Positions 2,167 through 51,559 of a DNA stretch of 64,000 nucleotides are shown here, one piece after another. The notes under the pieces are model-generated. The model had not been told where the DNA came from and searched no databases. It saw nothing but the letters and a program-made list of their open reading frames with translations. The stretch spans positions 124,537-188,536 of the forward strand of contig JAQGDQ010000366.1 of the NCBI GenBank assembly GCA_030141605.1, written 5' to 3'. The translations under genes and the position numbers were made by a program. The number at the start of each line of letters is the position of its first letter. Position 1 is the first letter of the stretch. The DNA comes from Tubiluchus corallicola (lineage: Eukaryota > Animalia > Priapulida).

Positions 2167-5100
2167 GTAATTTGCATACTAATTTGCAATTTACGTAAGT
2201 GTTTTATCTTAAAAATTGTCTCGTGTTGGACTCAAATGGTCTATGGCTATGTATTTCTGATACTTTTTTTGTAAAATCTTGAATCAGGTGTGAATTTATG
2301 CTATGGAAAGATGAACTAATTCAATATTACAGATACGATTATTATTAATATATTTATATATAAAGTCTATCATAGATCTAGGCCCACTTAAAGCCGTATG
2401 GGTTGCATTTTTTCCCAAAAATATTGTGTGTTCAGAGTGCGAGTGTGGGTCTCATTGTGCTTGACGAGGAGTTTTCTCGCAATGAATTGCAGGGACGAAA
2501 GGTGCCGGGGTTTAGCGACTCAACGTGAAGAAATTCTCAATCTCTTTATAAAATGTGTGTTCTTTCATGTTTATATAAAGCATGAATTTTGTAACACACC
2601 ACAAGCAGTTAATGAGCCATTATTGGAAATATATGTAATCAACAATAATCACGTAGGCACCAGCGCAGATTATTGAAGTCGTGCTATGCTAACCCTTAAA
2701 CTAGGTAATAGTGTTACTAATACACTACAAGTAATTGTAGTTGTGTTTCGTATACAGTAGTCGCCACTTAATAGACTCACAGTTAATAGAGTCAATCTAT
2801 TAATTGATGAATAAATGCCTGGAACGAGTCGCTTCTATTCAAATATACATAAAAACTATCAGTAATTGACTCAAATAACTTCGCTTAATTGACTCAATAT
2901 TTTCACGTACTTTAAATAAGAGATTTGTATGTGTTCAAACAGCCTTTCCTACTTCTATGTCATCTTGACTTCCCTTTTGTGCATTATATATGTGGAAACA
3001 ATCATGTTAAGTACCGTTTTGTTTGTAAGTAGGTACGTTTATCATGCGCTAACACGTTAGCCTAGCGGTTTTGCTTTGAATCTGTTACCCGGTCACCCAC
3101 TGCAATTTACCTCGTTACCCAAAGAATTTCTGGAAGCTAAACATTTAATCACTTGCCTAGCGGTTTCCTTTTGATGCTCTAGTTTCAGATCACGCTTTCA
3201 AGCTTAATGAGTTAATAGTCAAAGATGCAGGTAGAGTAATTAGTGGGTATTCCTTGTGACTTACAAGAGTAAACATCATACAGCAAATAAGGGCATAGAG
3301 TTAAGAAGTTTAAAAAATGGAGCATAAGCGTAAGAGACTTGTGTGATTTAGAAAAGTATACTCTTTAATTTATTGTTAACTCACTTATATAAATTAACAT
3401 TTTAAAATATTTTTTTCGAATTTTTAACTGCACAAAGGCATTACTTCGTTTCTAAAATTGATTAAAAGCCTTTGCAGTGCATAGTAAGCTGATGACTCAC
3501 ACTTCTATAGCAGTAATACTACACCCATCAGCTAATAGGTTCAATTGCTTAATTGGGTCAAAGCACTTCGGTCCCAAAGTGAGTCTATTAAGCCGCGCCT
3601 ACTGTATAAGCAAACATTAATCCATAATAGAGATTGGCAAGATTGAGCAATAAACGTAGGGTAATACGGTTTGAAATGATGTTGAACAGCGTACTTGGAA
3701 CAATGTGCAACTGTTTGGAGTGATGTTGAGCAGCGTACTTGGAACAATGTGCAACTGTTTGGAGTGATGTTGAGCAGCGTACTTGGAACAATGTGCAACT
3801 GTTTGGAGTGATGTTGAGCAGTGTACTTGGAACAATGTGCAACTGTTTGGAGTGATGTTGAGCAGTGTACTTGGAACAATGTGCGATTGTTTGGAGTGAT
3901 GTTGAGCAGTGTACTTGGAACAATGTGCGATTGTTTGGAGTGATGTTGAGCAGCGTACTTGGAACAATGCACGATTGTTTGGAGTGATGTTGAGTAGTGT
4001 ACTTGGAACAATGTGCGATTGTTTGGAGTGATGTTGAGTAGTGTACTTGGAACAATGTGCGATTGTTTGGAGTGATGTTGAGCAGTGTACTTGGAACAAT
4101 GTGCGATTGTTTGGAGTGATGTTGAGTAGTGTACTTGGAACAATGTGCGATTGTTTGGAGTGATGTTGAGCAGTGTACTTGGAACAATGCACGATTGTTT
4201 GGAGTGATGTTGAGCAGTGTGCTTGGAACAATGCACGATTGTTTGGAGTGATGTTGAGCAGTGTACTTGGAACAATGTGCAACTGTTTGGAGTGATGTTG
4301 AGCAGCGTACTTGGAACAATGTGCAACTGTTTGGAGTGATGTTGAGCAGTGTACTTGGAACAATGCACGATTGTTTGGAGTGATGTTGAGCAGCGTACTT
4401 GGAACAATGTGCAACTGTTTGGAGCGATGTTGAGCAGCGTACTTGGAACAATGTGCGATTGTTTGGAGTGATGTTGAGCAGCGTACTTGGAACAATGCAC
4501 GATTCTTTGGAGTGATGTTGAGCAGTGTACTTGGAACAATGCGCGATTGTTTGGAGTGATGTTGAGCAGTGTACTTGGAACAATGCACGATTGTTTGGAG
4601 TGATGTTGAGCAGTGTGCTTGGAACAATGCACGATTGTTTGGAGTGATGTTGAGCAGTGTACTTGGAACAATGTGCAACTGTTTGGAGTGATGTTGAGCA
4701 GTGTACTTGGAACAATGTGCGATTGTTTGGAGTGATGTTGAGCAGTGTACTTGGAACAATGTGCGATTGTTTGGAGTGATGTTGAGCAGCGTACTTGGAA
4801 CAATGTGCAACTGTTTGGAGCGATGTTGAGCAGCGTACTTGGAACAATGTGCGATTGTTTGGAGTGATGTTGAGCAGTGTACTTGGAACAATGCGCGATT
4901 GTTTGGAGTGATGTTGAGCAGTGTACTTGGAACAATGCACGATTGTTTGGAGTGATGTTGAGCAGTGTACTTGGAACAATGCGCGATTGTTTGGAGTGAT
5001 GTTGAGCAGTGTACTTGGAACAATGCACGATTGTTTGGAGTGATGTTGAGCAGTGTGCTTGGAACAATGCACGATTGTTTGGAGTGATGTTGAGCAGTGT

Positions 5101-8100
5101 ACTTGGAACAATGTGCAACTGTTTGGAGCGATGTTGAGCAGTGTACTTGGAACAATGCACGATTGTTTGGAGTGATGTTGAGCAGTGTACTTGGAACAAT
5201 GTGCGATTGTTAGGAGTGATGTTGAGCAGTGTACTTGGAACATTGCACGATTGTTTGGAGTGATGTTGAGCAGCGTACTTGGAACAATGTGCGATTGTTT
5301 GGAGTGATGTTGAGCAGCGTACTTGGAACAATGCACGATTGTTTGGAGTGATGTTGAGCAGTGTACTTGGAACAATGCGCGATTGTTTGGAGTGATGTTG
5401 AGCAGTGTACTTGGAACAATGCACGATTGTTTGGAGTGATGTTGAGCAGTGTGCTTGGAACAATGCACGATTGTTTGGAGTGATGTTGAGCAGTGTACTT
5501 GGAACAATGTGCGATTGTTTGGAGTGATGTTGAGCAATGTACTTGGAACAATGCACGCTTGTTTGGAGTGATGTTGAGCAATGTACTTGGAACAATGCAC
5601 GATTGTTTGGAGTGATGTTGAGCAGCGTACTTGGAACAATGCACGATTGTTTGGAGTGATGTTGAGCAGTGTATTTGTAACAATGCACGCTTGTTTGGAG
5701 TGATGTTGAGCAGCGTACTTGGAACAATGCACGATTGTTTGGAGTGATGTTGAGCAGTGTATTTGTAACAATGCACGATTGTTTGAAATGATATTGAACA
5801 GCGTACTTGGAACAATGGACGATTGTTTGGAGTGATGTTGAGCAATGTACTTGGAACAATGCACGATTGTTTGGAGCGATGTTGAGCAGTGTGCTTGGAA
5901 CAATGCACGATTGTTTGGAGTGATGTTGAGCAGTGTACTTGGAACAATGCACGATTGTTTGGAGTGATGTTGAGCAGTGTACTTGGAACAATGCGTGATT
6001 GTTTGGAGTGATGTTGAGCAATGTACTTGGAACATTGCACGATTGTTTGGAGTGATGTTGAGCAGCGTACTTGGAACAATGCACGCTTGTTTGGAGTGAT
6101 GTTGAGCAGTGTACTTGGAACATTGCACGATTGTTTGGAGTGATGTTGAGCAGCGTACTTGGAACAATGCACGCTTGTTTGGAGTGATGTTGAGCAGCGT
6201 ACTTGGAACAATGTGCGATTGTTTGGCTCATGCATTTGCTTTTATCATTTTCAGGCATTGTTCGTATTCTGTGGAATAATAACGGGTTGTTACTGTTGCT
6301 GTTGCTGCTGCTGTTGTTGCAACTTCTGTTTCGGAAAATACAAGCCCAAACATCCGGAAGACACCGGGGATTATTGCAACCTAAACGTAAGTACATGATT
6401 TCTATTCAACTATGAACTTACATGTTCAGATTTACTTTTATTTATTCATCCATTTAGCACAATATAAAAATAAAAGTTATAAAAATACAAATTAACAATG
6501 CATTACAGTGCTATGAGCGCAGCAGAAGAAATTAACTTATGAGCTACACTCAACATGGATAAGACTTAATTAATGATATAAACAACAACAAAAGAAAAAT
6601 ACGTTAAGTGGAGCGGAGCAAAGAGATGCGAGAAAACGATAAAGAAGATGTTGATGATGATGATGATGACAACAATGGTGATTTAGATTTATTCATCCAT
6701 TTAGCACGATACAAAAATAAAAGTTATAAAATTAACAGTGCTATGAGCGCAGCAGAAGAAATTACCTTACGAGCTTTGCTCAACGTGGATAAGACTAAAT
6801 TACTGATATAAACAACAACAATAACAACAACAAAAAAATACGTTAAATGGAGCGAAGCAAACATGCGAGAAAATGATAATGATGACAACGATGGTAGATT
6901 AATGCTGATGACAATGGTGATGGTGATGACAATGATAATGAATTGATGCTAATGGTTATAATGCACCAGGTTCGATGATATAAACCAAGTTAGGTATTCT
7001 TGCAGTGTTACAAATATTGTGTTCAAATATTGAACTATATAGAAGTATAAAAATGTGTTATTTTCAAGACTAACGCATTTTTTCATCTGCAAATCACACC
7101 GTCAAGTTTTTGTGTTCTTAGTACAGCAGTGACTTGTACTTTGGAGTAATTTGAGCTAACCCGTGACACCATTGCAATAATCAATCGCGTTGGATTTGTG
7201 CAAAACAAATAGCGGCGCCACTATTCCGTTTCGTTCGTTTGCTGAATGAGTGTGTAGCATATTTCTACTCTGTTGTCTCGGAAGATAAGAAAGCGTGTCG
7301 AATAAACAACCTGGATTTCGAAGAGGAGCGTCCCTTACGACAGGGGTGTGCAAAATGTGGCCCGCGAAGAGATTTGTCAAGCTAATGAAAGTGCGGTCCG
7401 GGAGATTAATTGAGTGTATCCAGCTGAAGTCCGTGCCACGATCCCAAAGATAGTGCGGGTAGTTTTTTCTTACTAGATCTGATGCCATTAACCCTTACAA
7501 GACGGTTGTAGCTTAATGTCACTGTACTACACAGACTGTGTGATACACATTACTAATATGCATTGTAATGAAATTACCACTATCTGTCCTGAAAGTAGAA
7601 ATATATGGTTTGTAATATAAATTTTAATAAACTTCTAAAATAGTTTCTTGAGTATAGTAGCAATGATGTACGCAGGTCGGATGCAAAAAAATCGTTATTA
7701 GGCCTTTCTGTACTTGGCTCCTTGATCAAACTGCCTGTGGCCCGCAGGAATTGCGGGAAAGTTTAATGTGGCCCGGCTAGTCAGATAATTTGCACACCCC
7801 TGCCTTACGAGATCAGCAAATGCTACTTCGTATGGCCGTGGTCATATGCAGTATGTGGTGCTACTTTCGACTGTTTTGGTTTTCTTTTGGTAAATTTTTT
7901 TAGAGAAATTCAAATGTACCAAATTTAATTTCTCTGTCAAATTTTCCTCGCTTCCAAAGTATTATCCTCTTTGTTGCTTTGTTTATCGAATTTCCATCAA
8001 TGTAAAAATGAGCAAGGTATACAACTGTTTGGGCTTTCAAAACCAAATTTGAAGCTCGATTAAATTTTGCTCTTTCTTTGCTCTTTCATCAATGTAAAAA

Positions 8101-11100
8101 TGAGCAAGGTATACAACTGTTTGGGCTTTCAAAACCAAATGTGAAGCTCGATTAAATTTTGCTCTTTCTTTGCTCTTTGTTTGCCAAAACATATCATTCC
8201 ATCTAAACATAAGAAATTATTGACAAAAAGTAACAAATAAACAAATAACAAAAAAATAACAATAGCCAAAAGTCAATTTTACATAATTAAGAGTTCTGCA
8301 CTGTACTGTCGTATTAATCAATACCTAGCTGTTATTTTAAAGTAAATTTAAATTTTATAAAGTAATTAGAGGATATACATACATTATTAGCCCCAAATCA
8401 TGAGCAATTGTAACAGATAACGACAATATCTTATCAACGTATCATGACACGTCTTCACTTCACGGTAGGCCTCTGACCCAGATCAAATTGATCACGTGAT
8501 TAGGACAAAAAATCACCACAAGGTGGCCAAAGCCAACAACAAGCGAAGGCCGCAAAGCACGCCGATGCAAGATTTCCAGTACAACAACTGAGTGCTGTAC
8601 GTCGCTTATGAAGAAATTAGTCCAGAATGTGAAGCATCGGTTTGCTTGCACACGTTTGTGAAATGTGCAAACTTAAATAAGAAACTACGCTTACAACGAT
8701 ACCATTCCATTTGTTCCTTTAAGTCACTGAACAATTTTTCTGAAATAGTGCCCTATTGTGACGTCACAATATTAAACAACCGGCACACACCACCCACGCC
8801 AGATGAAATCAATCGGACCACAAGACATCACCCTCACCATGCCACAAAACAACAACAACATTTTTCACAGTGTTAAAACTGGGTGAAATGGCATACACTA
8901 ATAAAGCCATCCATTGGTGATCAATAATGCACGAACATTGTACATAGTCTTTTCTGACTGCTTCTCAAATGATGGCAATAGGCTTGTTCAGTCTAGCTGT
9001 CAACAGTACACATTAATGGTTGTCATACAATCCATATTTTTACGAAAATTAAGTATGCATTGTTTGCCTCTCAATGAGTAAAGTGAGGCAAAGAATGAAT
9101 GTAAGCAGAAGGTCCCTAGTTCAAATCCAGATCGCATCCCAAATTTTTCAAACTATTGTTGTTTAATTAATTTTGTTTTGCGACATCATTAATAGTAACC
9201 TTGACATTAAGATTATAAGAGTTAATTAATCTTGAAGAATACTTGTTGAAATGGAATAATTTTACTAAAGCACATATTGAATTATCCTGCATGGGATGTC
9301 TCTTCTAAAATGTCAGAAACATTTACTAAATAAACTAGGTTTCTCTAATAATCGTAATGATAATTAATGCACGAACAAAACACTTAGTCGCGTTAACCAT
9401 TTACATTGTTAACAATGAGAAAGCTAAAATGTCAGTGACTGACCTTCAGTTCTTACAAGTAACTATTATTCACTAACTGCAGTTCGTCAGAAATACAACA
9501 AACTGTTAGAATGCCATGTACAGTTGCTTTGTATTTTTAATGAACTCAAGTTAGTGAATAATAGTTATTTGTAAGAACTGAATGGCTGTTGTTGACATAT
9601 TAACGTTCTTTTCAACAAACCATTCTGGACCATTGTTAACCAAAATCTTGTCATTTTCTGCCGTTCGAAGTTTCGCCGTTAACCAGGCGGTGCGTTCAGA
9701 CTCACAGAGAGACTCGCTAAGTAATTTGCAAGCTTGTTCAGACTAGCAAAACTTGCAGAAGTTACTCTTTGACAGTAAGCGTGATATGACACTCACTTCT
9801 CTACTCACTGCAAGAAACTGGACAAATAACTCGCCAATGTGTTCACACTAGACAGTAACTCGCAGAAAACGAACTTGCAGCAGTTACTCTTTGACAATAA
9901 GCATGAGATGACACTCACTTCTCTACTCACTGCAAGAAACTGGACAAATAACTCGCCAACGTGTTCACACTAGACAGTAACTCGCAGGAAACGGACTTGC
10001 AGTAGTTACTCTTTGACAGTAAGCGTTCGATGACACTCACTTCTCTACTCACTGCAAGAAACTGGACAAATAACTCGCCAATGTGTTCACACTAGACAGT
10101 AACTCGCAGGAAACGGACTTGCAGTAGTTACTCTTTGACAGTAAGCGTTCGATGACACTCACTTCTCTACTCACTGCAAGAAACTGGACAAATAACTCGC
10201 CAATGTGTTCACACTAGACAGTAACTCGCAGGAAACGAACTTGCAGCAGTTACTCTTTGACAGTAAGCGTGCGATGACACTCACTTCTCTACTCACTGCA
10301 AGAAACTGGACAAATAACTCGCCAATGTGTTCACACTAGACAGTAACTCGCAGGAAACGAACTTGCAGCAGTTACTCTTTGACAGTAAGCGTGCGATGAC
10401 ACTCACTTCTCTACTCACTGCAAGAAACTGGACAAATAATTCGCCATTGTGTTCACACTAGACAGTAACTCGCAGAAAACGAACTTGCAGCAGTTACTCT
10501 TTGACAGTAAGCGTGCAACGACACTCACTTCTCTACTCACTGCAAGAAACTGGACAAATAACTCGCCAATGTGTTCACACTAGACAGTAACTCGCAGGAA
10601 ACGAACTTGCAGCAGTTACTCTTTGACAGTAAGCATGAGATGACACTCACTTCTCTACTCACTGCAAGAAACTGGACAAATAACTCGCCAATGTGTTCAC
10701 ACTAGACAGTAACTTGCAGGAAACGAACTTGCAGCAGTTACTCTTTGACAGTAAGCGTGCAATGACACTCACTTCTCTACTCACTGCGAGAAACTGGACA
10801 AATAACTCACCAATGTGTTCACACTAGACAGTAACTCGCAGGAAACAAACTTGCAGCAGTTACTGTTTGACAGTAAGCATGAGATGACACTCACTTTTCT
10901 ACTCACTGCAAGAAACTGGACAAATAACTCACCAGTGTGTTCACACTAGACAGTAACTTGCAGGAAACGAACTTGCAGCGGTTACTGTTTGACAGTAAGC
11001 GTGAGATGACACTCACTTCTCTACTCGCTGCAAGAAACTGGACAAATAACTCGCCAATGTGTTCACACTAGACATTAACTCGCAGAAAACGAACTTGCAG

Positions 11101-14100
11101 CAGTTACTCTTTGACAGTAAGCATGAGATGACACTCACTTCTCTACTCACTGCAAAAAACTGGACAAGTAACTCGCCAATGTGTTCACACTATACAGTAA
11201 CTCACAGGAAACGAACAAGCAGCAGTTGCCAGGTAACTCGCAATAACTCGCTGACAGTAACTCACAAAGCCGTTCACACTTGCAAGTTTGGTGTCAGACA
11301 GAAAACTCGCTAGTCTGAACACTACGTAAGTCTCTTTTGTTACTGTTTTAAAAGAAGTCTTGGAAGAAGTTTACAATTCCCCACACAAGTAGCATCTTAC
11401 CATTGCTTAGTTTACAATTACACAGTAAATTCTCGCCTAACGACGCTAGTACATTCCGGCAAAACATGACGCTAAACGAAATGTTATTAAATGAAGCCGA
11501 GACTTCCATAAAATATTTTGGAGTGTGCTCTTGTGTAAAAGAAGACCGGACGATTGTTTAGACTCAATCGCATTTTATTTTATTGTCCAAAATATACATT
11601 TTCTTGCCATATGAAAGTTAGCAATTGTTCCTTATATTTGAATAATTAGCTTAGAATGTTAATTAATGGCAACCGAACACAGCTATTGCTTACGTCAGAA
11701 ACTAACCACAGTTTGTGCAATGGCAGGCGTCTTCCCTTGCGCGTCAAGCATGTTTGCACAAGTGTTACAGTACTGTATAAATGCATGACATCACAGAAAA
11801 TGGGCTTTACATCATATGACGTCAGAAACTAACACTCCAGTTCATGATCATGCTTATCACGGTACCGCCTTCTGTTTGTCGGCCACGTGAATGTGACAAA
11901 AAGGCGCCGCTGCCAATCTTAGTAGATTCACTGAGCCGCGCGTAGCTTCGAAAGTTTAACGAAATTTGAACATCCGAGGTAATTATTATTTAATCTAAGT
12001 TTTGATTTAAAATAAACTATTGTAGTTTTCAATATTTTATAGCATTCTTTATTCTGAACTCGTGTTTACACAATCGTCCGGTTTTCTTTTAAACTCGGTC
12101 GTTTTGCATGTAATCACTTTTCCTAGACATTTATTTACAAACTCTCATTTTTAAAATATTTTAAAACTTTCGCTTTACGTTTTCACCAGACTTTCACCAA
12201 GAAAGCGCAATATCTTACGGGTTGATTCCATCTTATTATTTTTTTGCCTCTCTGTGCACAGAGCGTTTGTCGTAATTTATTTGTCGGGCGGATTACCGTA
12301 TTTTCCCGTGTATAAGAGACCCTTGTGTATAAGAGACCCCTTCAATTTTTAGGCAAAAATTCTGGAAAAAAGTTTTTTCAGACGGACATTTTTAGAGGGT
12401 AGAGTACAACTTTTTTCAACTCAGTGCGGTACTGAAAACAAAATAAAACCAGTTAATGTGTTGTAGAAAAAGAGTACTGGTATATATCAAAGTGCGTACC
12501 TGCAAACCTGTAACAGGAAAAGAGAAAACGAGGAGATAATGTCTGTGTCACGATGCTTGTATTGCTTACAACCGCTTCATAGTCGAACGCGACACACAAA
12601 ACAGTTGTAGAGCACTTATTTCTTTAAAATCATTAGTGTCACAATTTATGCATCTTATTGAAAAGACTTACTCCCATGTATAAGAGACCCCTGATTTTTA
12701 AAGTGAAAATTCTGAGCAAAAAAGGGTCTCTTATACACGGGAAAATACGGTAATTTGTTTACTTTGCTCACTTGCTGTTGTTTGTTGTGTTTTATTTTTA
12801 ATATTCATTGCATGTTTGTGTACTTTATTTTAGCCAGAGAAGTTAGGAGAAGGCAGCTCACAAGGGGGGGACACGGTAATCGTTATAGACCAACCCGCAT
12901 CTAGTAATAATTACCCGGCTGAGGAAAAGCCAGGCGGCAAATCTCGGGTACGTGTTTTAGCGAGTAAACAAGCAAACGAACGGACAAACAAACAAGCAAG
13001 CTGAAAACGAAAGACAAGCAAACAAGCAAGCTGAAAACGAAAGACAAGCAAGCGAACAGAAAAGCAAACAAGAAAGCTGAAAGACGAACAAACATGCAAA
13101 CAAACAGTAAACAAGGAAGCTGAAAAACGAACAGACAAACAAAGAAGCAAGCTGAAAACGAAAGACAAGCAGACGAACGGACAAACAAACAAGCAAGCTG
13201 AAAACGAAAGACAAGCAAGCGAACAGAAAAGCAAACAAGAAAGCTGAAAGACGAACAAACATGCAAACAAACAGTAAACAAGGAAGCTGAAAAACGAACA
13301 GACAAACAAAGAAGCAAGCTGAAAACGAAAGACAAGCAGACGAACGGACAAACAAACAAGCAAGCTGAAAACGAAAGACAAGCAAGCGAACAGAAAAGCA
13401 AACAAGAAAGCTGAAAGACGAACAAACATGCAAACAAACAGTAAACAAGGAAGCTGAAAAACGAACAGACAAACAAAGAAGCAAGCTGAAAACGAAAGAC
13501 AAGCAGACGAACGGACAAGCAAACAAGCAAGCTGAAAACGAAAGACAAGCAAGCGAACAGAAAAGCAAACAAGAAAGCTGAAAGACGAACAAACATGCAA
13601 ACAAACAGTAAACAAGGAAGCTGAAAAATGAACAGACAAACAAAGAAGCAAGCTGAAAACGAAAGACAAGCAGACGAACGGACAAACAAACAAGCAAGCT
13701 GAAAACGAAAGACAAGCAAGCGAACAGAAAAGCAAACAAGCAAGTGAACAGACTAGCAAACAAGCAAACAAACGATAAACAAGGAAGCTGAAAACAAAGA
13801 GACAAGCAAACAAGCAAGATAAAAAAATTATGGACATACAAACAAATAAACGAACAAGGAAATCGAAAAACAAACAAACAGACTAACAGGCAAATAAATT
13901 ATGAAGCTGAAATATGAACAAACAAGCAAACAAACAATGAAGCTGCAATATGAACGAAAAAAGAACAAAAAAGTCGAAGAACGAGCAGACAAACAAGCAA
14001 ATAAACAAAGAAACAAACCAAAAAGAAACGAGCAAACAAACAAAAACAGGCAAACATGCAAAAAAACAATTGTATATTTGGATGATTATGACACATGTTT

Positions 14101-16520: not shown

Positions 16521-16596
16521 TTCATATTTCTACTGATTAATTTCTTTCTGTTTGCTTGAAACCACCTATCTTTCTTATCAATATCTAGCTAGACTT

Positions 16597-17725
16597 GCTA
16601 GTGGTCACTTGAAGTATGAACACAGACAGTTCACGGTTAAACACTGGCTAGTGGTCTCTTGAAGTATGAACATAGACAGTTCACAGTTAAACACAGGCTA
16701 GTGGTCTCTTGAAGTATGAACATGGACAGTTCACGGTTAAACACTGGCTAGTGGTCTCTTGAAGTATGAACATAGACAGTTCACAGTTAAACACTGGCTA
16801 GTGGTCTCTTGAAGTATGTAGTAGACAGTTCACAGTTAAACACTGGCTAGTGCTAGTGGTCTCTTGAAGTATGAACGTAGACAGTTTACAGTTAAACACT
16901 GGCTAGTGGTCTCTTGAAGTATGAACATAGACAGTTCACAGTTAAACACTGGCTAGTGGTCTCTTGAAGTATGAACATAGACAGTTCACAGTTAAACACA
17001 GGCTAGTGGTCTCTTGAAGTATGAACATAGACAGTTCACAGTTAAACACTGGCTAGTGCTAGTGGTCTCTTGAAGTATGAACATAGACAGTTCACAGTTA
17101 AACACTGGCTAGTGGTCTCTTGAAGTATGAACGCAGACAGTTCACAGTTAAACACTGGCTAGTGGTCTTTTGAAGTATGAACATAGACAGTTCACAGTTA
17201 AACACTGGCTAGTGCTAGTGGTCTCTTGAAGTATGAACGCAGACAGTTCACAGTTAAACACTGGCTAGTGGTCTCTTGAAGTATGAACGCAGACAGTTCA
17301 CAGTTAAACACTGGCTAGTGGTCTCTTGAAGTATGAACATAGACAGTTCACAGTTAAACACAGGCTAGTGGTCTCTTGAAGTATGAACATAGACAGTTCA
17401 CAGTTAAACACTGGCTAGTGCTAGTGGTCTCTTGAAGTATGAACATAGACAGTTCACAGTTAAACACTGGCTAGTGGTCTCTTGAAGTATGAACATAGAC
17501 AGTTCACAGTTAAACACTGGCTAGTGGTCTCTTGAAGTATGAACATGGACAGTTCACGGTTAAACACTTGCTAGTGGTCTCTTGAAGTATGTAGTAGACA
17601 GTTCACAGTTAAACACTGGCTAGTGGTCTTTTGAAGTATGAACATAGACAGTTCACAGTTAAACACTGGCTAGTGGTCTTTTGAAGTATGAACATAGACA
17701 GTTCACAGTTAAACACTGGCTAGTG
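16597..17725. repeat. Minisatellite, 50-bp unit, ~22 copies
   Basis: Unit GGCTAGTGGTCTCTTGAAGTATGAACATAGACAGTTCACAGTTAAACACT; some copies carry a GCTAGT duplication. Confidence 0.95.
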
Positions 17726-26090: not shown

Positions 26091-27440
26091 TTACAAGAAC
26101 GGCGACGCTGTGGGGTCCACGCTTTTAAACACGTCACTAAGCGGCAATTCTGGCAACGGAACGTCAATAACTTGTTTGCTGTCTTTGGAGGCGACCACCT
26201 CAGGCGCCGCCGATGTCTGTTGCGCTTCGGGTTGAGACTGAGTTGTGTCACCGCCTGCTGAGCTCGGTTTCCTTGAAATGGGCGACTGGTTACCCGGGCT
26301 ACTACTGGAATGTTTCTCGGCTAGTCTGCGAGGCAAAGCACCGTACGTTTCCGTTTCCGTCTCTGTATCGAACATTGCGAGCGGAGACGAGTATCTCATT
26401 GACCTGGACTTGTTTTCGTCTTTAGACGCGTCCATTTCTTTTGAAGATTTCCTCTTGCGTGAGGAGACTGGTTTGCTCTCTTCTGAGTTTGCGTTTGCGT
26501 CTTGACTAGGCGACTTAACGGAACTACTTTCCCCGCCTGGAACACTTGTCTGCTTCACGTCAGTTGGCTGAAGTGAATTTGTTGATTGTACTTCATGCTC
26601 TGTGGAATTCTCATGCGACACATTTGCATCGAGTGTTTTCGCGACAAGCACGGTTGTTGTTATCGCTTCGTGGATTTCCATTTCCGAAAAGTTCCGAGCG
26701 AATGGCACTCGGCTTTCGGTAGTGAGACTCGTGGCTACAGGTGGCGACACCTCACCATGCATCGATCGGTGCTCGGATTTGTGCTGACTAGAACTCTTAG
26801 TTTTTTGGTCGTGTCTGCTGCTACCACCTGAAAGTCGTCTTTGTTCTGATCGTCCAGACCTTGATTTGCTGTCATTGAGGATGGGCAGCTTAATATCCGG
26901 CAGAGTCGGCATACCGCTTAGAGAGGTGCCGATGGGAATATTTGCAGCAAGTGAGTTTGACGGTAGAGGCGACTCCTTCAAAAGTTTTTCAACTCGTGGG
27001 TCGTTTACTAACGCGGGATCTGCATCTTTTTTCAAGACCATTTTCCTACGGAAAGCGTCACGGTCGTTGATAACATCGACCAATCTTAAATTGAGCTTGC
27101 CTTCGCCGCTAGGTCTGCGTTCTGTGCCGGAAGAGCGATGAACGCCCGAAGAACTGCTAGAGCTTCGCTTGTCTCTTCTCGAGGGAGACGGTTGAGCAAA
27201 CGCTAGCTCACGCAGGTCGACGTCTTCTGACTTTTTAGCCCGCGGATCCGCCCTCATATCGACGTCCCCCGCGGTGCCGACGCTGTTTGGAAGTACCGTC
27301 TGGAGGACAGGCATGGCATTCTGTGCTTGGTTGAGTTGTTTGCGGAGTGCGCTTAACATGCTGGCGACGTTAACGGCAGGTTGTGCGGGTGGGGTGGATG
27401 CCTGTTCTTGTCCAGGATCGTCACGGCTCCCTTCAGATGG
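26091..27440 (-). CDS. ZC3H4: ZC3H4-like last exon (DPR motifs, DPTASPF terminus)
   Basis: ctttag|CCATCT acceptor, in frame with ORF 26091..27359; ends LSDVFKSVDPTASPFL*. Confidence 0.92.
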   Translation of the reverse strand, partial: PSEGSRDDPGQEQASTPPAQPAVNVASMLSALRKQLNQAQNAMPVLQTVLPNSVGTAGDVDMRADPRAKKSEDVDLRELAFAQPSPSRRDKRSSSSSSGVHRSSGTERRPSGEGKLNLRLVDVINDRDAFRRKMVLKKDADPALVNDPRVEKLLKESPLPSNSLAANIPIGTSLSGMPTLPDIKLPILNDSKSRSGRSEQRRLSGGSSRHDQKTKSSSQHKSEHRSMHGEVSPPVATSLTTESRVPFARNFSEMEIHEAITTTVLVAKTLDANVSHENSTEHEVQSTNSLQPTDVKQTSVPGGESSSVKSPSQDANANSEESKPVSSRKRKSSKEMDASKDENKSRSMRYSSPLAMFDTETETETYGALPRRLAEKHSSSSPGNQSPISRKPSSAGGDTTQSQPEAQQTSAAPEVVASKDSKQVIDVPLPELPLSDVFKSVDPTASPFL

Positions 27441-30400
27441 CTAAAGTAAACAAATTGCCCTTTTTACACAAAGTTAAATCTAAGCAGAATTACATCTTTT
27501 CGAAGCAGACAAATGCAAGTTTAACTGTTGACACTGCATTTTTCCGCACTGTGCGGACGACTGTGCGGACACACATTATTACTGGCATGTAATAGTTCTT
27601 TTTCAAACTTCAAAATTTTAATTTATTGATTTAACACACATCATAATCACATTAATTGGCACACAATTTTGAATTACGTGAAAACGATCACTGTTATTAA
27701 AGAAATAATGAAGGGAGCCCTAAGAAGCCGTGCCTTATGACACACCACCCATAACTGTTTTTATAATAATTTTATGAAACAGTATATTTTAGTTGTTAGC
27801 AATTTTGTACACTACTATCCTAAGATAAAAAAACTACCGTTTGTTCCAAGGAAACATTACACTGTTGTGACCAAAGTTCTTATTTTAGAGTTACGTAGTT
27901 ATAAAAACAGATTTAAAAGAAACTTTATATTTTCGTTTAAAGATTGACAAGTGTTTTTCGATAATCTAACGTCTCGCGGAATATTATTCCACAAGGGGGC
28001 AATAAAACTTAATCAAATATTTCCTTATATCTGTGCAGTTGAATGAAATGATAATTTTTGTTTTGTCTAGCGCTATGAGAGTGAAGATCAGAATTTCGAA
28101 TGAAGTAGTCAGAAAGTAATTCTAGTTCAGAAAAGTTGCCAGACATTTTGCAATAAATACAGCCACCGTAATTTTCTGTTTCTAAAATTACACAAGAAAA
28201 AGTGCTCTACATTGCCTGTTATTTGAGCTGTGCTTATTGCTTGGTCATAGACGTATGAACGTATCAAGTAAAAAGAACAATATAGATATACAGTCGACCC
28301 TCGTTAAACCGGACCCCGTTAGCCCGGATATCGGATAAGACGGACGTCAACCGTGGTAAAGGAAACTGACCGATTTCCGACCGAGCCGGAGCGCTAAACA
28401 CAACACGGCTTACCAACTCACCACGAGCCATTGACGGGCCGAAGCCATTTTGTATTTAAACTGTTCAATAATTTCTTTATCCTCACAGGCTAACTATTTT
28501 AAAGTAATATACAGTATATAGTGCAATGTATATAGGCCTTATTAAGGTGATTATTCCTGTATAATATAGACCATATATAGGCATATCGAATAAATCGGAC
28601 AATCGGCTAAACCAGACCACCCCCCACCCACCAATTAGTCCGGTTTAACGAGGGTTTACTGTATATTTATTATCTGGGCAACAGTGGGATAGCTTACGTT
28701 TTCTTTGCGCACCTGTTGAAGAGTTGATGTTAGAGGTTTATCATCTCCATCTTCGTCACTCTCAGAGTACCACTCTGCAGCAGCATCTTTCGTCATTCTT
28801 TCTACATCTGCAATTAACACAAAATACTTTTTTTATTAATCTGTGAATAAAAAATTCTTATGTTACCACAGTCTTTTAGTAAAATTTGATTCATCAAGCT
28901 GTAAATCATTGACAAATTTATGCTCACCTGTTGCATCGGGGAAGTCTGGTGCTCCAGGTGGAGTTTCTCCTGCTGGTTCCTCATGCTCCTCTTTCAATTG
29001 TTGTTGCTGTTTAATTCTCAGAAACAGCTGGCGTTGTGTCACTGGCATATTGGCGAGTACCTCGTCATGTGTATCTGGCTTCTGCCTGTCCGAAGGTCCG
29101 CCCTCCAAGTGGTCAGTGCGACTGCGAGGCGATGCAAAACGCCCGGCCGTCTCGTCGCCTTCCCGTTGCTTCGAGTCGTGCGTGGTTTTGCCGCGGGGCA
29201 CACGAGGGTCGTTTCCGCCTCGCTGTCGGGGATCGTTGAGCTGACGAGAATCTCCGCTCTTGCCATCTTCTGCATCATTTTGCTGCACCAAACTCTGATC
29301 TGATGTGGTCTGATTAAGCCCTGCATTTCCCTTGGTCAGAACCTGAAGCAAATTCAGCCGTAGCTCTTCATTTATCGGCCCACCTTGTAATAACCCAGCT
29401 GCAGCTTGACTTAACAATGCCTGATTGTTCAAAAGGTTGGCATTCGGCAAGCCAAGACCTTGATTTGGCATTCTAGGGCCTTGATTTATAATTCGTGGAA
29501 CTTGGTTCATCAGACCAGGGGTTTGGTTCATTAAACTTGGCAACTGATTCATTATGCCAGGTCCTAGATTCAACATGTTGCCGGGGCCCTGATTCATAAT
29601 ACCGGGTCCCTGATTCATCAAGCCCGGACCCTGGTTCATCATTCTAGTTCCTTGATTCATCAGACCAGGGTTTTGATTCATTTGTCCAGGCCCTTGGTTC
29701 AGTGACCCCATTACTCGATTCATTGGACCGGGACCTTGATTCATTGGACCGGGACCTTGATTCAATGGACCTGGTCCTTGATTCATGAGTCCAAGACCTT
29801 GATTCATGTGCCCGGGGCCCTGGTTCAGACCAGAGCCTTGATTCATGCCGGGACCTTGATTCCTTATTTCCGGACTCGGAAAACCTAAAAAACGGAAATA
29901 ATATTTTACAATAACATAATAAATCAATCGATCAATTAATAAATCTCAATCTTTAATTATTATCAATAATCACATTAATCGGTGTCTGCTTACCACCGCC
30001 AGTGTGATTTCCAAAATCACCATCGGACTGGTCATTCCATCCTCTATCTTGATGCCTAAAGAAACCGTCTTGATGTCCTCTGCTGCCTCTACCTCTTCCA
30101 CGACCACTTCTGCCTCTTCCCCTAGCATCGTGGCCATCATCTCCACGCTTATCTCTTAAATTACTGTCGTTTTCTTTGTAAAATGACGGCCTACGTAAAC
30201 AACAAACATTTTTTCGTACTACGTCATTCATTTCATTTTTTTACAGTAAGCCTCTGGTGGCACTAAAATCAATATAATGAACAGAATTAAAACTTCAAAG
30301 ATGCTCAATTATTTTAGTGACAATGTCGGAATACAATGTTCTTGAAAGCTATCAGTATCCAGCAAAGTGTTTAATAAAACGTTAGAATAACAACGTAATC

Positions 30401-33400
30401 TGTAACTTACGGTTTCATTGTCGTAGGTTTCACGTCTAAATCCAAAAGGGAAGGCAACTGTTTTTCCTTTTCTTTCATCTCTTCCAAGACATGACTGGGA
30501 GGCGTGGGGAGAAGACTAGGTTTCTTAGATCGGTCTCTGTGTCTGTCTCTTTCTGAACCGTGCTCTTCACTCTCTAACAGCTAGAATACACAAGAAGAAA
30601 TGCAGTGAGGAAAACGTTCTAAAATTACAATCGAGTAAAATTGCCATTGTTTTCCAAACATGCAGTTCCAGCATTGTGTGAAACAATGGAACAAACAAAA
30701 CAAAAAGTACTAATTAAAAGAGTGCTTTATTATCTGACTCTATGACCAGACATCCTAAGTTGAGCAATGCTTGGTAAATCACCTGGATGAGGGACCATGT
30801 AAAACTTGCAGTTACTGAACACCAACTAAACTCAACAAGAAACTATTCAGTTATTTTTAAGATAAATAGTCCAACAGTCCCAAGACCCTTAAAACGAGAG
30901 ACACCATTTTTATGCAAGCAAATGCTAGGAAATCTCTCCAGGCGATCAAAGCAAACAGCTACAGCCCTACCTTGCCGAGAACGAGTTTTCCTTCCGCCGT
31001 GAGAGGTTCATGAGAGAATCGACAATTCTTCTGAAAACATTCGCCATTCGTGTGAAAGTAACGACACGGATAGTCGTCTAGTAAATAATGTCAAGGAGAA
31101 TGTACTAGCTGAGATAAGTCTCGTTTACGAAAGTACAGTAATAGCAGTTGCAAAATGACAATTAGTCACGTCACACAGTCATTCTGTATCATTATTTCTG
31201 GAATTGCCAAGTAATCACAGTGTGTGCTCATCAACTAAAGTTATGCAACAATAAGCCCATCGGTAAGAGAATGGGCGACTCCCTGGGAAAACACTTTTAG
31301 GAGAATATTACAAAGCAGCTAAGAGACATCTACCAGACAGTGTCTCATCTAAAAATATCGTCCTTGATAGTGAGATACATTCTAGTCTTGTCCCAGTTAG
31401 CTAAGCAGGCCCTTTTATTCAATGCTGATCCTGACTTGCAGAATGACACACTATCATAAGGTGCCTTAATGAAAAGTCTTGCTTGAACGTTGCAGCACAC
31501 AGCTGTCGCCTGAATTAGCAGTCACTTAGTTCTACATACAGCAGTACCTCTGTTTTCGACCATAATTCGTTCCTAAAAAGTGTTTGAAAACCGATTTGGT
31601 TGAGTACCGAATCATTTATTCCATACGAAATAATGTAAAAGCACATAATCCGTTCTCAAGCACCAAATGAACTGTAAAGTATTACTAAAACGAAATATAA
31701 TAACGCAAAAATGTTTATTCAAACAGTAGATATGATATAATTGATAAGAAAAACATAATTGTTCCTGCATGAAAAAAGCGGAGAAAAATGAGCGTAGAAA
31801 GCACTTAGTGATGTTAGGTGATTCAAATGTTGTGCGTGACTACTCTCGGGCGCGGTCGGTTACTCTCGGTTACGCTCGGCTCGCCGCACGTGTTCATCAC
31901 GTGTTTGGAGGTTGGTCGAGTACCGAAATTCTGGTCGAAAACGGAGACAATTTCAGCTCGAATTTTCCGGTCGAAAACCGATTTGTACGAGTACGGAGAC
32001 GTTTGACAAAGGAGGTATGACTGAATTCAAATTGTTTTCTAGAAACTTTTCCTCGGGGCAAAATTTAGCCCAACTACCCCCCTAAAATATGAAAATGAAA
32101 ATACTAAAAGTATGTAAGTGTACTATCTTAAAGAGAGAAAAGGCAATTTTAAAATATATCCCCAAAACTTTCCATGCAAATTTTGCATTACTTAGCAGTA
32201 CATTTACTTGTTTGAAAGGCTTATATAACTAGAAAAACTTAATAATTTAAAATGATCGGCCATGTGGTAAAAGGGCACTGCATTGCAATCCCAGCGTGCA
32301 CTCCTGGCTCACCAAAAAACACTATTGATCGTATTGCCAACATAAAGATATTTTAAATTTTGCTTAGTTAGCGAAGAGGCTACAAATGCTCTGATTATTT
32401 TTTCAAATTTTACGTAATGTTATCTAAATTTGTATCAAATGACTTACTATTAAAATGGATGCACCTAACTGTCATAGCAGGAGTTTAAGCTTACAAGTTT
32501 TATAAAGCGTTACTGTTAAGGCAAGCTCTGTATACAATAAAGCAGCAAGTAAATAATACAAAATTTCAACACGAGGTTTTTAAAGCGTTATTTATGAAGA
32601 GAGTTTCCTTATATTTCAAATTGTATGCTTTGTGAAGTTGTACTCAAAATACAAAATTTCAACACGGGTTTTTAAACTTTATTTATGAAGAGTGTTTCCT
32701 TATGTTTCATATTATGAAGTTGTACTCAAAAGGATACCATGCATGTATATACAATGCTTCCCCTTCATGCATTGGTCCGACAGGAAAAACTTGCAGAGCT
32801 CCAACTTTCGTGGCGGAATGACATCATGACTGAATGGACAATCTCTGCCCTAAAATAAACATCACAAGTGCTGTGCAATGGCTTCATCTACTAACACAGA
32901 AAAGCTAAGAAATGGTGACCTCCCCAATTATATCTCCAGTACATGCAGTGGTTTTCTACTACTGTCACAATTTGATGGCAGATGGCAGCACAACTGTTAC
33001 ACGATTATACTTTACAGAATCAAACCAAATCTCTGAAATCTAGTCAATCAGTTAAATAGTTTACCTTATTACACTTGCCCTCCATGAAATACTTGCACAC
33101 AGACTTCTTCTCTTGGCTCCTGTCTTTTCTTTCCCGTCTCTCCCTCGGCCTTGGAGGCTTCCTGTCACCACGCCGCTTCTTCTTGGCATCGCTTGGTGCC
33201 GGACCGCGTCCTCGCAAGAACATCTACGACAAAAATACTAGTGAAAACACAAAAACCTGACTGCTGAATGAACTGTTGTGCACTTTTGTTTTGTGGCTCA
33301 CTAGTGTGAACGTAAAAATAGTGAAGTAAAAATATAGTGGAACAACCATTACTGAACTATTAACCAACTATTACTGAAGCAAAATGCTAGTGTGAACCAG

Positions 33401-49427: not shown

Positions 49428-49758
49428 TTAAACGTACAGGCATATGCGTTATGCTTCATCTATGTACATAATTTTAAGTTAATTAATTTATTAATTAGTT
49501 CTATCTACTAATTCTTATTTACTGTGTGCAACTAATCTTATGGATGCTTTTACGGCTGAAATAAAATTGAAATTGAAAAGAAAGTAAGAAAGTTGAAAAC
49601 AATCATGATTTGTTTTTCACAGCATGCACCATTGGAGCTAACTTGTGAATCTACCTGTGATCGCTGAAGCTTGACTGGTATTGGTAATCGTGCTGCCGGT
49701 CTGAGGTAATCTTTTTGTGGATCTGTTAAATCCTAAAAATTTGGAGACTCTAGCCACT

Positions 49759-50234
49759 TCTTCTTCCCAGCTTTTCCCTATGCGGGGTCGCCGTTGTGAA
49801 TGAGTCCTTTCCACGCATTCCTGTTGTTGACCATCTCTTCATTTTATGTCTTCCCTTCCCACGTGAACTTCACCGACTCTTCTTTTCAGGTGTCCATACT
49901 ATCGCAATCTTGCGAGGCTTCCACTACTTTTACTGTTCCTCTGATATTATTATTTCTAATTTTATCTCTTCTTGTTATTCCCACCATCCATCTCAACATC
50001 CTCATCTCCACCACACCCATTTTCTTCTCTTCGGTCTTCTTTAGAGAAGCTGCTTCCAGCCCATAGATTAGAGCGGGTCTGACCACTTCTTTGTGGAGAC
50101 TCATTCATAGAAGGTTTTGGCACAGTTTTTACAGGCAGATGCCTGTAAAAACTGACCCTAACCCTCCCTATTTATCCGGGCTTGGGACCGGCACTGAGTT
50201 GGGCTGGCTTGCCCCCCCCCCCAGTGGCTAGGTT
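49759..50234 (-). mobile_element. Short internally deleted RTE-clade non-LTR retroposon
   Basis: 18-bp TSD TTGGAGAC(T/A)CTAGCCACT (49741-49758, 50235-50252); (GAA)n 3' tail; RTE C-terminal peptide VVRPALIYGLEA..EMRMLRWMVGITRRDKIRN..IRGTVKV; retains the 5' UTR. Confidence 0.9.
50156..50234 (-). ncRNA. Twister self-cleaving ribozyme (P1-type architecture with extended P3; 5' P1 strand absent)
   Basis: Minus strand AA-CCUA-GC-CACUG..CAGUG-CCGG-UCCCAAGC-CCGG-AUAAA-UAGG-GAGGG-UUAGG: P2 CCUA/UAGG, T2 GC/GC, P3 CACUG/CAGUG, P4 CCGG/CCGG, T1 CCC/GGG, catalytic G at 50166. Confidence 0.9.
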
Positions 50235-51559
50235 TTGGAGACACTAGCCACTATTTTATTGATTATTTTGCCCTTGTGCAAAGCTATAGTTGTCGATAGC
50301 AGCTTTATTTTCCTTATTAACTGTCACATTTCTGTGGTCTGATTCGTAACCTGCATTATGCAGATATAATGCAGTCAGTGCGTAACACTTTACTACAGAA
50401 TACAGAATAAGTTCATTGTCTCAATAACATAATCAACATAGCATTAACAAATGATGTGACTACTAAGAGAGACAGGGTGACGAAACGACCGAAAGGTCAT
50501 CGAGTCTACCACCCTTCTACTAATTTAATAACAAAACTCTACTTAGATTAGTACTGTGAGCTATGTAAATTAAACTATAATGTAAATGTAAATTATATTT
50601 TATTTTATCTAAAGCATTATTCTTGTATAGCAGCAGTTGTTAGTTAGTAGCGTGTGCATATGTCATAATTGCATAGCTGGATTAGTCAGTAATATGTGAA
50701 AATAATTTTAAGTTACAAATTAAAATTAATCAATACTTTGTCATATAGCATAACTGTTAACTGATACAGACCACGTGCAGCCATAAGCATACTAGACAAT
50801 AGAATTAACGATAAACTTTTGTTAGCAGGTTTGGCAAGTTGCCTGAATCTTGCAGTGAAAGCCAGTTGACATTGTGCAAGATGTACGTGCAGGAGTGACG
50901 GTTTAGAAGGTCGAACATTTTGCTCAAAAGTCAGCGTGCAGCACAATTGTGCCATCGTTGTATCACAGACATGGTACCATGTGCTGGATTGTGTCGGTGT
51001 CCGGAACTGTTTCCACTGACAGTGACCGGGGCTGCAGCTTTCAGGTAATCCGAGAGAACTGAAATTGACAGCAGGTTTCGACACTTTGCCGCCAGCACTG
51101 GACCTTAATTTATCCGACAGAAGTGAAGCGACATCTGTTAGTTTACTGACTGTGAGAATCACTAAAGTTGTTTATTTGATTTAAACTTTAAGCTGAAATT
51201 GTTTCATAAAACTACAAAATAATAAACATGCAAGGAGGTCAGACAACTCAATCAGAGACTCTGCTAATGAAAGTTTTGCTTAACTGTGATCGTAGCTATA
51301 AACTTTTCCCAACGTGCAACGTACCTTGTGGCATAAATACGCTCCAATAACCACGAAGGTTTTTCACAATGAGTTCCGTTAGTGGAAACTACAGCACGCA
51401 GAGGTACATTCTTTCTATGGTCCTTAGGAAGACCACACAAAGTTCAGGGCATCTTGAGTGGAGATTCACTCACGATGCCCTGAACTTTATGGTCTTCCTT
51501 AGGACTATAAGAAGAACGTACTTGTGGCATAAATTATACTTGTCCTCATCACTAGTTAT

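Follow-up and report, generated by a model that had tools for sequence, protein, structure and literature searches.

The 476-bp insertion described here, on the minus strand of the window (the whole stretch of 64,000 nucleotides that was analysed), is very probably a mutated copy of a multi-copy, internally deleted family of RTE-type retroposons whose members have their 5' ends at the site where cleavage by a twister ribozyme is predicted. Because its copies begin at that site, the family likely frees itself from read-through host transcripts, and a full-length RTE likely supplies the enzyme for its re-insertion.

Boundaries and genomic context of the element

Sequence comparison delimits an insert at 50234-49759 (minus strand) flanked by a target site duplication (TSD), in agreement with the 476-bp minus-strand element of a preliminary description made from the sequence. 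The flanking direct repeats, given there as 18 bp with 17/18 identical bases, are real but count one base more and agree at 18/19 positions. As this repeat ends in an A that can be assigned either to the element or to the TSD, the 5' boundary is 50234 or 50233. Between 44 and 56 kb, 34 pairs of 19-mers with at most one mismatch and a spacing of 100-1000 bp were counted, among which the TSD pair is the only one that is not of low complexity. The proposal that the boundary falls within 1 nt of the twister A7-equivalent was likewise borne out, 50234 being the A that follows the predicted scissile bond. Neither a second copy of the element nor another twister core (up to 6 mismatches allowed) was found elsewhere in the 64-kb window. 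A contig over the 5' junction (50211-50330), recovered in the public sequencing runs X1 and X3, departs from the window at four flank positions, one of them in the TSD (50250), and these differences reflect either a second allele or a paralogous locus.

Some 17 kb downstream of the element, on the same strand, are the exons of a host gene at 26091-32795 (minus strand), which include a CCCH zinc finger at 32795 and RG-rich and NQGPG-repeat regions. A database search with these exons gave no match, and we take the gene to resemble ZC3H4/6. The window also contains large tandem arrays at 1-1224, 3666-6226, 9749-11227 and 16593-17725, with units of about 48, 44, 122 and 50 bp, respectively, and dispersed repeats, e.g. 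17796-18408/48815-49432/37147-37667 and 34427-35061/61392-62680. Table 1 gives the features of the element.

Table 1. Features of the element and of its target site duplication (window positions).
Feature	Position	Strand	Basis
5' TSD, 19 bp; final A doubles as the twister A7 position; initial 9 nt reverse-complementary to element nt 50231-50223	50234..50252	-	sequence
3' TSD	49740..49758	-	sequence
Twister-P1 head as left by predicted cleavage	50155..50234	-	covariance-model match and pairing
AA of head	50234-50233	-	pairing inspection
P2	50232-50229/50170-50167	-	pairing inspection
T2 GC	50228-50227	-	pairing inspection
P3	50226-50220/50198-50192	-	pairing inspection
P4	50191-50188/50179-50176	-	pairing inspection
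L4	50187-50180	-	pairing inspection
Catalytic G	50166	-	pairing inspection
P1 3' strand	50161-50155	-	pairing inspection
Perfect 15-bp inverted repeat with 2-nt loop (50154-50140/50137-50123), private to this copy	50123..50154	-	self-comparison and contigs
Remaining RTE 5' UTR	50105..50154	-	resembles 5' UTR of RTE-bearing locus L043
Start codon and 4 nt, then main internal deletion (about residues 3-840 of the 985-aa RTE ORF)	50097..50104	-	P0040 begins MSL
RTE ORF C-terminal piece 1, from P0040 residue 847	49913..50097	-	61-aa stretch 77-79% identical to best relatives
Piece 2, P0040 residues 912-932, after a small frame-shifting family-wide deletion	49851..49913	-	protein alignment and contigs
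Piece 3, running to the stop codon and preceded by a deletion (about 28 codons) common to a large part of the family	49778..49850	-	protein alignment and contigs
19-nt 3' UTR ending in 2-3 GAA units; tail and TSD overlap by 2 nt	49759..49777	-	sequence

The twister head

The twister-P1 covariance model (RF03160) aligns over its whole length (positions 1-68 of 68) to 50157-50239 on the minus strand, with 52.6 bits and an E value of 7.2e-11 for 701 bases searched. The match proposed as a check in the preliminary description was thus obtained, though below the gathering cut-off of 67.2 bits, and an Rfam scan of the whole 64-kb window at the gathering score gave no match. This shortfall counts little against a twister fold, since the other twister heads scanned from RTE-type loci (9/9, at 41.3-65.9 bits) are below the cut-off as well. 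The element's score is typical of them, and routine annotation would therefore miss these heads.

In the element head P2, P3, P4, the T1/T2 strands, the AA at L1 and the catalytic G are all present. The parts downstream of the scissile bond are intact, as had been claimed, with P2, T2, P3, P4, L4 and the G at 50166 as originally placed. The base that precedes the AA is an A (50235) and not a U, and P1 is incomplete. The element indeed lacks the 5' strand of P1, as had been described, but part of this strand is provided by the end of the TSD, which offers 3/4 P1 pairs in the Rfam alignment. With these predicted parts, the head fits the T-variant class as the available text of Liu et al. (PMC8501958) presents it, and in their terms would be a 4-A T-variant. 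Among the contigs of X1 no alternative letter is listed at 10% or more over 50152-50234. The variable sites in X1 number five in the ORF part and none in the twister, a contrast too small for demonstrating selection.

A deleted RTE body

The element consists of the 5' and 3' ends of a single-ORF LINE with an APE endonuclease and a reverse transcriptase (RT), joined by deletion, which is the make-up of a bipartite non-autonomous RTE; an intact APE+RT ORF is absent, about residues 3-840 being lost. At 50104-50098 the element reads ATG AGT C, which matches the MSL start of P0040, so the 5' part comprises the whole 130-nt UTR followed by 7 nt of ORF, with about 840 codons lost in the main deletion. 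What was first described as only a small fragment of the ORF C-terminus is in fact about 340 bp in three pieces, the third of them corresponding to roughly the final 25 residues of P0040 with its stop codon. When the 61-residue stretch at 50095-49913 was compared with 45 candidate proteins, 32 were matched; the full-length relatives P0010, P0025 and P0040 carry an APE endonuclease and an RT domain in a single ORF. The best named RTE relatives come from decapod crustaceans, and RTEs move between hosts. The RTE clade label of the element and its relatives is our presumption from C-terminal motifs and anatomy, and not from a named RTE reference or a tree.

The (GAA)n tail of the preliminary description is present but amounts to merely 2-3 GAA units; in RTE retroposons the tail is linked to the first base of the TSD (PMC6007223, available text). 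A SINE with a tRNA, 5S or 7SL head is not supported: no tRNA gene was detected in the 64-kb window, Rfam gave no such head, and the element has no match to the A/B-box patterns used.

Family evidence in public runs

Nine public runs were listed, none of them recorded as RNA, and contigs from four were compared (X2, X4, X6, X7 and X9 were left out). X1 may be the source sample and is for that reason not independent evidence. It yielded 3,604 contigs on 49735-50265, of which 1,388 are at least 99% identical, 1,273 are at 95-99%, 777 at 90-95% and 166 below. Summed depth is 1.7e5-1.3e6 inside the element vs 63-228 in the flanks, a step of three to four orders of magnitude that does not translate into a copy number. 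Fifty-four contigs exit the element exactly at 50234 and 40 exit at 49757, with consensus agreements of 0.43 and 0.46, both places being among the best 6 of 94 with loose ends; the low agreement there reflects unrelated flanks. X5, from another organism and study, covers essentially the head alone, and in it 135 contigs end at 50234 (agreement 0.42) and 20 more at 50236.

The deletion junctions are shared. Counted away from contig ends, depth in X1 stands at 703,468 for the second junction and at 328,665 for the third, and the element copy's two private changes, which serve as an internal control, reach 4,444 (50095-50096) and 8,294 (50144-50151). At the main junction, 15 and 13 contigs of X1 carry an extra 20-nt piece (codons read by hand as V-R-L-K-G-K) and continue across it, and in X3 record 12 spans 50003-50142 with 20 gaps. 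The third junction varies: one X1 contig has 13 extra bases there, and 11 contigs of X3 continue at 49844 into undeleted ORF, evidence of a longer form but not of an autonomous partner. The three larger deletions are features of the family, the third varying in this way, and the family form is about 490 nt long. The element thus belongs to an abundant multi-copy family with varied flanks and is not a one-off, on contig evidence that does not include whole copies. The check suggested in the preliminary description came out in favour of a family, the X1 contigs showing many copies with the same deletion junctions and, next to different flanks, the same 5' end at 50234.

No autonomous partner was seen among the X1 contigs. 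X8 has the same species label as X1 yet covers almost nothing of the element, and was set aside. In X3 (49744-50247), in contrast to X1, the 3' end of the element is covered about 25-fold more deeply than the twister; this excess could stem from a shared tail, from library bias or from relatives truncated at the 5' end.

Private changes and predicted flank-dependent folding of this copy

The element copy departs from the majority at six positions (49807, 49809, 49863, 49867, 49900 and 50137). Two rearrangements are also its own. A 20-nt loss at 50098/50097 is private to it, as loose ends there and record 12 of X3 indicate. At 50143-50151 other copies carry a different short stretch, with loose ends at 50143/50152, and the perfect hairpin of Table 1, absent from the preliminary description, probably arose from a weak quasi-palindrome via template-switch correction. 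Through the 20-nt loss the C-terminal fragment comes into the reading frame of the start codon, and the resulting 72-codon ORF at 50104-49887 (minus strand) is probably accidental.

The first 9 nt of the TSD (50252-50244) are the reverse complement of 50231-50223, as good a match as is reached by 4 of 5,000 random 19-mers. The second half of the TSD matches 9 nt across the private junction (50103-50095), and both kinds of match together occur in 11/5,000 random 19-mers. With the native flank, the helix between TSD and head dominates the predicted nested fold (pair probabilities 0.78-1.0). Forcing P2, P3 and P4 would cost 9.7 kcal/mol with the native flank vs a median of 5.2 for 200 random flanks, and 7.9 vs 1.5 kcal/mol when the downstream hairpin is included; in each case 3/200 random flanks are as bad, and these values are relative predictions only. 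In nested folding, which excludes pseudoknots, P2 is near 0 with the native flank, and random flanks are also low (median 0.0-0.12). Base pairing of its TSD to the 5' strand of the ribozyme itself is predicted to prevent folding, so this copy would probably be a poor source, or a dead end.

Twister heads on other RTE-type loci

A relaxed twister core pattern retrieved 93 loci from metagenome contigs, many of the non-RTE ones being cut by contig ends or bacterial-looking. An RTE-type ORF lies downstream in 18/93 loci and is full length in 10 (tblastn with P0010). L064, 166 nt in length, carries a GTT tail and has its TSD at the AA; it matches the 5' end of the full-length L084 at 92.6% and the 3' end at 96.6%, and is a predicted twister-headed miniature of independent origin. 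In L082 the head is joined to ORF residue 751. Three further loci were set aside as miniatures or as insertions: L016 (160 nt, 15-bp TSD) was not counted as bipartite since it matches the 5' part of a LINE alone, L091 looks 3'-cut rather than whole, and a 9-bp repeat at L067 was taken as chance and not as a TSD. L064, L084, L016 and L082 illustrate that short twister-headed and full-length RTE-type elements, some of them with GTT tails, are present in metagenome contigs. GTT tails are typical of plant RTEs. The 6 full-length loci examined for a TSD yielded no exact one, the exact pattern of the present family had 0 matches in metagenome contigs, and viral contigs held no RTE relatives, their 4 twister loci being without an RTE ORF.

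In a metagenome family of 27 copies, conservation rises at the AA: the first A scores 0.89, position -1 scores 0.67, and columns further upstream score 0.33-0.59. Nine P2 variants among families keep pairing, P2 having been chosen by best fit. A MAFFT alignment of 13 heads misaligned P2 and P3 and was not drawn on for covariation; it is uninformative on the core, which the construction of the search pattern makes invariant. The P3-loop motif (50210-50204) is common to the heads of L009, L030, L043, L069 and L081, as is a motif in the downstream 5' UTR, and the ORFs of L030, L069 and L081 are just 36-39% identical to the element's fragment. A conserved head module would thus sit on divergent RTE bodies, possibly through swapping of heads. 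We regard it as an even call whether twister heads serve RTE-clade LINEs generally as a module for 5' release, with miniatures arising repeatedly in unrelated hosts (the element family, L064 from the lineage of L084, and probably L082). Such heads score under the Rfam cut-off, which would explain why twister-headed miniatures have gone unseen so far.

Proposed mechanism and alternative explanations

In the mechanism that we favour, a copy would be transcribed from host sequence upstream of it, and the flank, through the TSD, would provide the 5' strand of P1, so that the twister could cut before the AA at 50234; the fold, the shared boundary and the activity of Perere-3 T-variants with 2-7 As point to this step. 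From what is known of the clade, the RTE protein would then bind the retained 3' end and prime on the GAA tail, and insertion would leave a TSD that abuts the AA, as is seen in the element. Whether a new copy acts as a source would depend on its flank: each insertion site writes its own P1 strand, and the flank would thereby decide which copies become sources.

Rather improbably, the twister could be a passenger: the 5' end would have been fixed once in the parent LINE, and the 130-nt 5' UTR would contain an internal Pol II promoter that drives transcription of the miniatures, so that cleavage would not be required. Such a promoter would likewise yield a fixed 5' end, and in the available text of Kojima (PMC5786205) bipartite LINEs are considered likely to be Pol II transcribed, and the 5' extremes of LINEs to drive transcription. 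The boundary coincides, however, with A7 in three unrelated sets (X1, X5 and the 27-copy metagenome family), and all twister core positions are retained while P2 and P3 vary among families. A bacterial promoter scan was disregarded as irrelevant to a eukaryote. Far less probable still is a role for the free 5' end of the element RNA in pairing with the target strand and helping to choose or open the insertion site. The antisense match between TSD and head, which begins at the very edge of the TSD, would fit such a role, but it was noticed post hoc and in a single copy; the consensus of the 40 X1 flanks at the 3' end has no such motif, and in the 27-copy family of another organism the longest antisense match averages 4.26 nt vs 4.23 in 270 control windows. 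Least probable of all is that a full-length RTE copy underwent a single deletion event after insertion and never was a mobile unit in this form. The two rearrangements private to this copy are events of that kind, but depth over the three larger junctions is 70 to 160 times that over the private 20-nt change, and other contigs, from two studies, span them; these main junctions refute a one-off deletion, which is excluded for practical purposes.

Relation to known systems

The closest parallel is Perere-3, an RTE-clade element of Schistosoma mansoni, at whose 5' end T-variants of the twister were reported by Liu et al. (2021; PMC8501958); according to the available text, T-variants with 2-7 As cleave, those with 3A, 4A and 7A less efficiently. 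Like Perere-3, the element has a twister-P1 core at an RTE 5' end and several As at L1. In Perere-3 T-variants the TSD adjoins the cleavage-site AA and forms the 5' strand of P1, and in the element it forms part of P1. Unlike Perere-3, which is full length and autonomous, the element is without APE and RT; its P2/P3 sequence is different, its tail is GAA vs GTAA, and its ribozyme is a predicted one (compared with the available text of PMC8501958).

ORF-less bipartite derivatives of RTEs (RTE-N families, RTESINE1/2, WALLSI3 and Bov-A) are described by Kojima (2018; PMC5786205). The element shares with them 5' and 3' ends joined by internal deletion, the lack of a tRNA head and amplification as a family, and differs in that its family keeps a coding C-terminus in three pieces, whereas theirs are mainly UTR. 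The available text of that paper reports predicted HDV-like ribozymes on some RTEs, contains no mention of a twister, and raises 5' ribozymes as a possible reason for bipartite derivatives. Ribozyme-headed relatives of R2 are also known, namely R2 SIDE and R2/R1 SIDE in Drosophila (Eickbush and Eickbush 2012; PMC3414825) and the SIDEs of R2 in PMC6765202. As far as the available text of PMC3414825 goes, these likewise combine a 5' ribozyme with a LINE 3' end, and are released from a co-transcript and mobilised in trans; their ribozyme is HDV-like and they insert site-specifically in rDNA with a fixed upstream context, whereas the element family has a twister, is dispersed and would have a site-dependent P1.

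No publication on twister-headed non-autonomous RTEs was found, and in the available text of a preprint on tobacco RTEs the words 'ribozyme' and 'twister' do not occur. The search lay outside Repbase, Dfam, subscription journals and the supplements of PMC8501958 (2,060 T-variant sequences) and PMC5786205, which may hold the family or its relatives. Each ingredient (a twister on an RTE, bipartite RTE miniatures, ribozyme-headed R2 SIDEs) is published; the combination was not found in print, and it involves no new principle.

Biological significance

The family would extend the one published function of eukaryotic twisters, the 5' processing of Perere-3, to non-autonomous elements and to other hosts. 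It bears on a question left open by Kojima, namely why bipartite miniatures arise from RTE, Ingi/Vingi and R2 alone; for their formation a 5' ribozyme together with a 3' recognition signal may suffice. Since the activity of the ribozyme should depend on the flank, the source copies of a dispersed family become testable, and if twister heads are a general release module, a young family of such size would be a natural library on how flanks decide which copies become sources.
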